Shown piece after piece: positions 2,622-3,915 of a stretch of 12,349 nucleotides of DNA (within the stretch, counting starts at the first letter, position 1; the number at the start of each line of letters is the position of its first letter). The notes beneath the pieces were generated by a model that saw nothing but the letters and a program-made list of their open reading frames with translations, made no database searches and was not told where the DNA came from. Origin of the DNA: Candidatus Helarchaeota ASGARD archaeon Hel_GB_B (GTDB lineage: Archaea > Asgardarchaeota > Lokiarchaeia > Helarchaeales > HEL-GB-B). The position numbers and the translations under genes are program-made. The DNA is taken from assembly GCA_005191425.1 (NCBI GenBank), contig SUPR01000097.1, positions 1 through 12,349 of the forward strand, read 5' to 3'.

Positions 2622-2794
2622 ATTTTATATCTTTATTTGCAATTTATTCATTGATATCTAAAATATCTTGATGTTTATATACAAATTTAAGGTAACTATA
2701 TCATTTTTCGTCTTCATTTTGAAAATTTTATCCTTTATATTAAAAAACTATATTCAAAAAATTTTTTAATAATAATAAAATTTTAATGTTAAAG

Positions 2795-2802
2795 TTTAAT
2801 TA
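2795..2802 (+). promoter_or_regulatory. Possible TATA box (TTTAATTA, preceded by purine-rich AAAG as a BRE-like element) for the tRNA gene
   Basis: Lies about 24-31 nt upstream of the tRNA 5' end at 2826, the expected archaeal spacing. The AT-rich background makes this weak. Confidence 0.3.
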
Positions 2803-2842
2803 AAATTAAACATTCAAAAAATAATGCGCCATTAACTCAGCC

Positions 2843-2879
2843 ATTGTTAGAATATACTTAAACTATTCTACAACTGAAT
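2843..2879 (+). other. tRNA intron 1 (37 nt), non-canonical D-loop position 17/17a
   Basis: Central helix TCAG (2837-2840)/CTGA (2874-2877), 3-nt bulges CC|A (2841-2843) and AT|T (2878-2880), and inner hairpin TTG-t-TAGAATA/TATTCTA-CAA. Cutting after the second nucleotide of each bulge restores a typical archaeal D-loop AGCCTGGACA. The outer helix is only 1 bp (C2836-G2881), so the BHB is relaxed. Confidence 0.85.
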
Positions 2880-2901
2880 TGGACAGAGTGCCAGCCTTAT
2901 A

Positions 2902-2953
2902 AGAGCACATTGCGTGTTCAGGAATTGGCTGTACTTTGCACATGCTCTAAGTG
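2902..2953 (+). other. tRNA intron 2 (52 nt), canonical position 37/38
   Basis: Strict hBHBh': anticodon stem CCAGC/GCTGG, central helix CTTA (2896-2899)/TAAG (2948-2951), bulges TA|A (2900-2902) and TG|A (2952-2954), inner helix GAGCA (2903-2907)/TGCTC (2943-2947). Confidence 0.93.
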
Positions 2954-3024
2954 AGCTGGAAGTCAGGGGTTCGAAGCCCCTATGGCGCATAATTTTATAA
3001 AAAATATAACGAAAGGTCATAAAA

Positions 3025-3915
3025 ATGTTAAAAGTGGTGGGAGGCTCATCCGCAAAACACATAGCATTTGAAGTAGCTAAAGAATTAAATACCGAATATA
3101 TTATGGTAAATACTAGGAAATTTCCTGACGGAGAAAAATATATAAGAATATTAGATGATCACATTAAAGGAAATTCTTATGCCGTTATTCAATCAATGTA
3201 TAGGACTCCTGACGAATATTTAATGGAATATTTTTTTATAACAAATGTTCTTAAAACACATGGAGCTGAAAAGATCATATCATTTATCCCATATTTTCCT
3301 TATGCAAGACAAGATACTGAATTCAATCCAGGTGAGCCTATCAGTTTTAAAATTATAGCAAATTTAATTGAGAATGCAGGTACAGATATTTTATATACAT
3401 TTGATCCACACCTTCATCGAATTAAATCGTTGTCTGATTTATTTACTATTAAAGCTCAAAATATTTCTCTAATTCCTATGATCGTCCGGTACATTAATAA
3501 TAATTATAATTTAAAGGACGCAATCATAATAGGCCCTGATGAAGAAAGCGAGCAATGGACTCAAATGGCTGCAAATGAAATAGAAATTGAATATGACATA
3601 TTACAAAAAGTTAGACATGGCGATTATGATATAGAACTTAAGCCCAGAAATTTAGAGGTCTTGAATAGAGATATTATTTTAATAGATGATATCATTTCAA
3701 CAGGTAAGACTATGGCTGAAACAATAAAAGTTTTAAAAGACCAAGGGGCTAACAAAATTCTGGCAGCTGCAAGCCACCTATTATTGATTGGTGATGCTTT
3801 AATTAATCTTTATCGTGCTGGTGCCGATGTAATTATCGGCTCTGATTCTATTCCGAGTCCAGTTAGCCAAGTAAAATGTGCACCCTTGATTGCTGAGATT
3901 CTTAAAAAAATGTAG
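3025..3915 (+). CDS. prs: Ribose-phosphate diphosphokinase (PRPP synthetase), compact archaeal type
   Basis: Motifs FPDGEKYIRI, PYFPYARQD, DPHLH, and the PRT loop IILIDDIISTGKTM. The 296-aa length fits archaeal PRPP synthetases. Confidence 0.96.
   Translation: MLKVVGGSSAKHIAFEVAKELNTEYIMVNTRKFPDGEKYIRILDDHIKGNSYAVIQSMYRTPDEYLMEYFFITNVLKTHGAEKIISFIPYFPYARQDTEFNPGEPISFKIIANLIENAGTDILYTFDPHLHRIKSLSDLFTIKAQNISLIPMIVRYINNNYNLKDAIIIGPDEESEQWTQMAANEIEIEYDILQKVRHGDYDIELKPRNLEVLNRDIILIDDIISTGKTMAETIKVLKDQGANKILAAASHLLLIGDALINLYRAGADVIIGSDSIPSPVSQVKCAPLIAEILKKM

Follow-up and report, generated by a model that had tools for sequence, protein, structure and literature searches.

We report a gene for tRNA-Ile with a UAU anticodon, interrupted by two introns, in the Helarchaeales archaeon Hel_GB_B. 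It occupies positions 2826-2989 (+) of the 12,349-nt stretch of DNA analysed here (the window), which is contig C181 of the source assembly (genome G000; 3.54 Mb, 182 contigs, 93.7% complete), and yields a 75-nt product once both introns are removed. Judged from gene sequence and gene content, the locus is very probably a functional gene for tRNA-Ile(UAU), a "tRNA-Ile3," that replaces the TiaS/agmatidine system in this lineage.

Reading AUA without misreading AUG depends on lysidine in bacteria, on agmatidine in archaea, and on IAU or psi-A-psi anticodons in eukaryotes. In the usual archaeal system, TiaS converts C34 of tRNA-Ile2(CAU) to agmatidine.

Exon 1 (2826..2842, +), recognized by direct reading and ARAGORN, supplies the 5' strand of the acceptor stem (GCGCCAU), U8 and A9, the 5' strand of the D stem (ACUC), and the first D-loop bases (AGCC); its 3' boundary follows from the bulge-helix-bulge (BHB) rule, under which cleavage falls behind the second base of the bulge. 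The remaining D-loop bases (UGGACA, among them G18 and G19), the 3' strand of the D stem (GAGU), and G26 lie in exon 2 (2880..2901, +), whose 3' part adds the 5' strand of the anticodon stem (CCAGC) and loop residues C32 U33 U34 A35 U36 A37. A 16-mer of this exon, GAGTGCCAGCCTTATA, is the same in two relatives from family f2 (G002 and G006). The anticodon TAT (UAU; 2898..2900, +; direct reading and ARAGORN) is cognate to the Ile codon AUA. Exon 3 (2954..2989, +) runs from A38 through the 3' strand of the anticodon stem (GCUGG), the variable loop (AAGUC), and the T arm (AGGGG UUCGAAG CCCCU) to the 3' strand of the acceptor stem (AUGGCGC) and discriminator A73; the gene does not encode CCA.

All pairs of the spliced product are Watson-Crick (acceptor stem, 7/7; D stem, 4/4; anticodon stem, 5/5; T stem, 5/5), and the product has the conserved residues U8, A14, G18-G19, U33, A37, A38, T loop UUCGAAG, and A73. 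In its acceptor stem (6/7 bases), A73, and T arm, it is similar to the same genome's tRNA-Ile(GAU). ARAGORN called the spliced sequence as a 75-nt tRNA-Ile(tat); the sequence called had its D-loop junction shifted by one base relative to the BHB-rule product, the two being equal in length and stems and differing in one D-loop base at the junction (A for U). By ARAGORN and by direct reading, the spliced sequence belongs to the tRNA family (RF00005). The initial annotation, which had proposed a two-intron tRNA-Ile at 2826-2989 with TAT at 2898-2900, is thus borne out by the ARAGORN call and the full pairing of all stems. In G001, G002, and G006, the T loop is UCCGAAG or UCCGAAC, with C54 for the U54 of UUCGAAG in Hel_GB_B (L002 1171-1200 [-]; also L003 and L004).

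Directly upstream of the tRNA lies a gene for a Ras-family small GTPase (2064-2621, +; 185 amino acids; PF00071, 164 bits), a typical Asgard "eukaryotic signature" gene, and directly downstream lies the ribose-phosphate pyrophosphokinase gene (prs; 3025-3915). An A/T-rich box, GTTTAATTAAAA (2794..2805, +; read from the sequence only), about 21 to 32 nt upstream of the tRNA 5' end, is a possible candidate for an archaeal TATA element.

Intron 1 (2843..2879, +; 37 nt) interrupts the D loop after nucleotide 17. Its central helix (UCAG/CUGA, 4 bp) pairs 2837-2840 with 2874-2877 and is bordered by 3-nt bulges at 2841-2843 (CCA, cut after CC) and 2878-2880 (AAU, cut after AA); the inner helix pairs 2844-2847 with 2870-2873 and is continued by 2849-2854 with 2864-2869. 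The motif is relaxed, because the outer helix is the single pair C2836-G2881, and for the same reason its cleavage would need a broad-specificity endonuclease. Minimum free energy (MFE) folds of this intron show the 5' bulge, the central helix, and the inner hairpin, and its removal restores the usual D loop, AGCCUGGACA. The sister species G001 has a D-loop intron at the same position; relative to Hel_GB_B, its inner helix changes from UUGU/ACAA to UUGC/GUAA, a compensatory replacement (U-A to C-G), and an A-to-G change in the central helix turns U-A into U.G. No D-loop intron is present in the f2 relatives G002 and G006.

Intron 2 (2902..2953, +; 52 nt; direct reading) sits at the canonical position 37/38. 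Its central helix consists of four Watson-Crick pairs between CUUA (2896-2899, C32 to A35) and UAAG (2948-2951), with bulges at 2900-2902 (UAA, cut after UA) and 2952-2954 (UGA, cut after UG), an inner helix GAGCA/UGCUC (2903-2907 with 2943-2947), and the anticodon stem as outer helix. The strict BHB described at 37/38 by the initial annotation is therefore upheld by direct reading: the 37/38 intron has every element of the archaeal hBHBh' motif, and the D-loop intron has every element but the outer helix. ARAGORN (-i) reported the same 52-nt intron after removal of the D-loop intron. The MFE structure of the precursor fails to draw the canonical BHB register at 37/38; the local MFE fold retains the anticodon stem and inner helix but shifts the central helix by one register. 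In nearest-neighbour models, the two bulges of a BHB carry a penalty.

The genome encodes two EndA catalytic-domain proteins (C36:44408-44659 and C98:28593-28853; PF01974, 98.6 and 75.1 bits; open reading frames of 192 and 218 amino acids), and the presence of two such genes suggests a heteromeric, broad-specificity splicing endonuclease. Splicing endonucleases of the heteromeric type accept relaxed motifs. Introns are common in the other tRNA genes of this genome, and multi-intron tRNAs are the rule. Among the tRNA-Ile(UAU) genes that we read in all genomes, intron number ranges from 0 to 4, and the 37/38 intron is almost always present.

In the raw, unspliced window, no tRNA was found by ARAGORN or by Rfam at the gathering threshold; the unspliced locus reached 21.6 bits against RF00005 (E = 0.085; C181:2872-2981), the gathering score being 29 bits. 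The fold z-score of the locus is -4.6. A genome-wide BHB-splice scan reduced 13,445 acceptor-pair candidates to only about 30 tRNA loci, tRNA-Ile(UAU) included. Logan contigs from three runs of three studies (X1, X2, and X4; all hydrothermal-vent metagenomes, one of which may be the source sample) cover 2814-3100 with zero differences inside the tRNA; the only differences, at 3020 and 3066, fall within the neighbouring prs gene. Among the runs listed as containing the locus, none is an RNA run. The anticodon bases 2898-2900 are without variant in all three runs, and the T at 2898, which a C would have turned into a CAU anticodon, is confirmed.

The codon served by this tRNA is abundant. Across 1,232 open reading frames of at least 300 codons, ATA occurs at 39.1 per 1,000 codons and accounts for 34% of Ile codons; it is about twice as frequent as ATG (20.5 per 1,000). 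The heavy AUA use that had been surmised from the window is thus genome-wide, and the ATA-ATA-ATA run at 2160-2168 does lie in frame within the GTPase gene. By gene content, AUU and AUC continue to be decoded by an archaeal-type tRNA-Ile(GAU) (C163:8134-8234).

The tRNA inventory of the genome (BHB-splice and ARAGORN scans) stands at about 35 loci and is incomplete. An initiator tRNA (CAU) lies at C160:36233-36329. An elongator tRNA-Met(CAU) was not located by the splice scan, by a regular expression for CTCATA/TTCATA arms, or by blastn with the Lokiarchaeales gene. A scan for CAT, TAT, and GAT anticodon arms found the initiator as the only CAU tRNA, and the inventory likewise lists no elongator tRNA-Met; the elongator gene is either unassembled or interrupted beyond the scanner's resolution. 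One locus occasionally called "Met cat" by ARAGORN (C111:17807-17956) is actually tRNA-Glu(CUC) and was rejected. No second UAU gene was found by the anticodon-arm and BHB-splice scans. Elp3, for which the initial annotation had proposed a search, is present; therefore, xm5U-type chemistry is available in this organism.

Two further tRNA observations are recorded here. In Hel_GB_B, an intron-less tRNA-Ala(CGC) at C160:49511-49583 has the T-stem closing pair A53-U61 in place of the near-universal G53-C61. In Lokiarchaeales, the gene for an elongator-type CAU tRNA, with acceptor sequence GCCGGUG and anticodon stem CCAGA, sits immediately after another tRNA gene and has a conserved 37/38 intron with GGGTCAGA, to which some genomes add D-loop and T-loop introns (examples are L057 190-345 in G032, L084 1395-1532 in G007, and L165-L167).

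Within the class (Lokiarchaeia), about 130 genomes were searched and none yielded TiaS. The TiaS FLD domain (PF08489) matched none of 41 genomes, namely Hel_GB_B and 40 relatives spanning families f1 to f5, with control genomes scoring; the TCKD domain (PF22641) had no match in Hel_GB_B. A tblastn search of this genome with two Asgard TiaS proteins, themselves confirmed by NF040849 (476 bits) and all four Pfam domains, gave a best E value of 0.024, covering the zinc ribbon only. Partial TCKD matches, confined to f2, were considered as divergent TiaS and rejected: these proteins are methanogenesis-marker-11-like with a winged-helix N terminus, and score 155.6 bits on TIGR03280 versus 50 bits on the TiaS model (cut-off, 600 bits). 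As an observation in its own right, this 375-amino-acid f2 Helarchaeales protein (L104 1180-2307 [-] in G002; L105; L106) fuses a TrmB/MarR-like winged-helix N terminus to a methanogenesis-marker-11-like body that matches the TiaS TCKD domain over its initial 60 positions.

Across a phylum sample of 301 Asgard genomes, PF08489 was present in 171, with a sharp family pattern. It was missing from f2 (0/1), f4 (0/69), f5 (0/7), f6 (0/4), f15 (0/19), f16 (0/3), f19 (0/5), and f24 (0/3); families with the domain include f8 (24/28), f10 (68/76), f25 (21/21), and f30 (11/11). The initial annotation had suggested that the lineage had lost or was losing TiaS. The loss stands, there being no domain or tblastn gene match; a loss in progress does not fit the class-wide absence. 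Because TiaS is missing class-wide, its loss is most likely lineage-wide and old, and not ongoing.

Orthologues of tRNA-Ile(UAU) were found in more than 25 genomes, and UAU genes were read in every family of the class (f1 to f5 and f32). They were read in f1 (G001), f2 (G002 and G006), f3 (G003 and G005), f5 (G038, G311, G017, G219, G291, G243, and G288), and f32 (G313). Within f4, they were read in genus g8 (G009), g19 (G297), g7 (G315 and G317), and g9 (G032, with G026 and G186 assigned by near-identical BLAST match and a common 15-mer). The UAU tRNA of G038, used as a BLAST query in f4, matched mostly tRNA-Ile(GAU) and the elongator CAU tRNA, and the UAU genes of g7 and g10 were located via the 15-mer AGCGCAGGTCTTATA. 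This 15-mer is identical in G007, G013, and G016; in G007 an RF00005 match of 45 bits encloses it, and for genus g10 (G013 and G016) the UAU assignment is by the 15-mer alone. In the f2 genome G004 (82% complete), no UAU tRNA was found, the pattern matches there not being tRNAs.

A UAU-arm 15-mer searched over the 301-genome sample found real UAU tRNAs outside the class in f6 (4/4), f15, f16, and f24, all of them TiaS-less families; the pattern is narrow, and a family without a match counts neither way. Two matches in TiaS-positive families were not tRNAs and were rejected. The f6 genomes are near complete at 1.3 to 1.4 Mb, and this family may be Odinarchaeia. The mapping of UAU and TiaS across Asgard archaea that the initial annotation had proposed gives TiaS in 171/301 genomes, and UAU genes read in the class and in f6, f15, f16, and f24. 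Since TiaS is absent, UAU is class-wide, and AUA makes up 34% of Ile codons, it is most likely that an encoded UAU anticodon replaces the agmatidine-CAU system throughout the class.

Two further UAU genes were also encountered. The f4 genome G009 contains an intron-less tRNA-Ile(UAU) (L169 137-214; G009:C54) with an encoded CCA and G-U pairs in the acceptor stem, adjoining tRNA-Arg(UCG); it differs from the intron-containing UAU genes of related genomes and may be a second copy, possibly borne by a mobile element. A metagenome-assembled genome labelled "Thermoprotei archaeon isolate AUK163" (JAGGXX010000018.1; L287 6396-6498 [-]) carries an intron-containing tRNA-Ile(UAU) whose arm, AGCGCCGGCCTTATA, is the same as in the Asgard families f6, f15, f16, and f24.

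We weighed three other explanations. The UAU tRNA could be real yet redundant if AUA had a second reader, a tRNA-Ile2(CAU) that the scans missed and whose C34 is modified by some enzyme without relationship to TiaS. The incomplete CAU inventory leaves some room for this, as the initiator alone was found and the elongator tRNA-Met is missing too, and the anticodon stem of the Lokiarchaeales elongator-type CAU tRNA (CCAGA) resembles that of the UAU tRNA (CCAGC). We nevertheless consider it improbable: TiaS was found in none of the genomes searched in the class, all families examined retain the UAU gene, as they should if it is an essential sole decoder, and the relatives examined show one initiator and one elongator-type CAU tRNA, which corresponds to the Met requirement alone. 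Still less probable is that the locus is a decaying or unspliceable copy, its D-loop insert not being a true intron and no working tRNA being made. The 1-bp outer helix of the D-loop BHB and the subthreshold RF00005 score of the unspliced locus would fit such decay, but once spliced all four stems are perfectly paired, G001 has a D-loop intron in the identical position, with compensatory substitutions, and multi-intron tRNAs are the rule in the genome; moreover, no second UAU gene was found, and AUA is too frequent to go without a decoder.

The least probable of the readings considered is a mitochondrion-like recoding of AUA: the tRNA would bring Met to AUA codons, or would decode AUG as well as AUA. 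In its favour, a U34 that is unmodified or bears an xm5 group might in theory pair with G as well as A, the genome encodes Elp3, and the scans found no elongator tRNA-Met. Against this, AUA as Met would put Met at about 6% of residues, the acceptor stem, A73, and T arm are like those of tRNA-Ile(GAU) and unlike those of the initiator, and all published UAU cases are Ile (PMC3575796, PMC3239211). A functional, Ile-specific tRNA-Ile(UAU) in place of the agmatidine system is therefore the reading that we retain.

For this retained reading, the expected course starts from a primary transcript with two BHB introns. The archaeal splicing endonuclease would excise both introns and a ligase would join the three exons; CCA would be added post-transcriptionally, and the 75-nt tRNA would be charged by IleRS and read AUA via U34-A pairing. 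We infer in vivo splicing, Ile charging, and discrimination against AUG from the gene and its context. AUG would presumably be avoided through modification of U34, or through a ribosome and an IleRS adapted to this tRNA, as is the case in Mycoplasma mobile or in eukaryotes.

Decoding with UAU instead of agmatidine-CAU has been published for Nanoarchaeum and Korarchaeum (PMC8450103, PMC6000648). Like Hel_GB_B, Nanoarchaeum equitans and Korarchaeum cryptofilum have an encoded UAU and no TiaS, and they are also without tRNA-Ile2(CAU); the Korarchaeum UAU gene, like the present one, has an intron and resembles its own tRNA-Ile(GAU). Those cases are single species in other phyla with at most one intron, whereas in Asgard archaea the trait covers a whole class, and Hel_GB_B adds a D-loop intron. 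The pre-tRNA-Ile(UAU) of ARMAN-2, -4, and -5, with a strict BHB, is spliced in vitro by a broad-specificity endonuclease (Fujishima et al. 2011, PMC3239211). ARMAN shares with Hel_GB_B the UAU anticodon, the lack of TiaS, and a strict hBHBh' intron at 37/38. It differs in belonging to DPANN and in having a three-unit epsilon2 endonuclease, in contrast to the two separate predicted EndA-type genes of Hel_GB_B; the additional noncanonical intron is found in Hel_GB_B. In Mycoplasma mobile, as in Hel_GB_B, a lineage without a C34-modifying enzyme reads AUA with tRNA-Ile(UAU) (PMC3575796). That tRNA is bacterial and intron-less, and its discrimination against AUG is reported (PMC3575796), that of Hel_GB_B being presumed. 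These published cases agree with the occurrences of UAU cited in the initial annotation for Nanoarchaeum, Korarchaeum, and Mycoplasma mobile.

Eukaryotic cytosolic tRNA-Ile(UAU) is like that of Hel_GB_B in having a UAU anticodon dedicated to AUA, a usual interruption at 37/38, and no C34-amidation enzyme. Formation of psi-A-psi in eukaryotes is due to the intron-dependent Pus1. Eukaryotic tRNA-Ile(UAU) is modified to psi-A-psi (PMC8879553). Eukaryotes read AUU, AUC, and AUA with IAU, whereas Hel_GB_B keeps tRNA-Ile(GAU), and in its genome introns are common in other tRNA genes too. The eukaryote-like AUA decoding put forward in the initial annotation therefore holds for the encoded UAU without TiaS; beyond that it is an analogy only, as tRNA-Ile(GAU) is retained.

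Multi-intron Asgard tRNAs have been published (PMC11291895; bioRxiv 10.64898/2026.10.13.758758) and, like those of Hel_GB_B, contain introns in the D arm that standard finders overlook, with BHB motifs at the intron ends. In term searches, neither paper mentions UAU or tRNA-Ile, and the bioRxiv paper mentions neither Helarchaeales nor Lokiarchaeia. The literature searched held no paper combining TiaS with Asgard, or agmatidine with the truncated term Lokiarchae. The UAU decoding mechanism is already known from Nanoarchaeum, Korarchaeum, and ARMAN, and none is reported for Asgard archaea in the literature searched; the Asgard-wide TiaS/UAU split appears to be unpublished. As no paper was found that joins TiaS or agmatidine with Asgard archaea, the distribution is worth a proper mapping.

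For the organism, the finding means that a Helarchaeales archaeon in which AUA makes up a third of Ile codons apparently reads it with a plain UAU anticodon, and not with agmatidine. The combination of UAU and no TiaS belongs to whole Asgard lineages and not to one genome, most other Asgard families keeping TiaS; tRNA-Ile(UAU) was present wherever it was looked for in TiaS-less lineages, the f2 genome G004 excepted. The genome is also another case in which standard tRNA finders miss essential tRNAs. The distribution of TiaS and UAU offers a character by which the ancestry of AUA decoding in eukaryotes can be tested. A bolder reading, which we hold to be unlikely and offer tentatively, is that a clean divide separates Asgard lineages with TiaS from those that lack it and have an intron-containing tRNA-Ile(UAU), the latter comprising all sampled Lokiarchaeia with Helarchaeales, the Odinarchaeia-like small-genome family, and at least three more families, and that eukaryotes inherited their tRNA-Ile(UAU) and their lack of agmatidine from a TiaS-less Asgard ancestor. 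If this were true, the intron-containing tRNA-Ile(UAU) of eukaryotes would predate eukaryogenesis and would not be a later invention.
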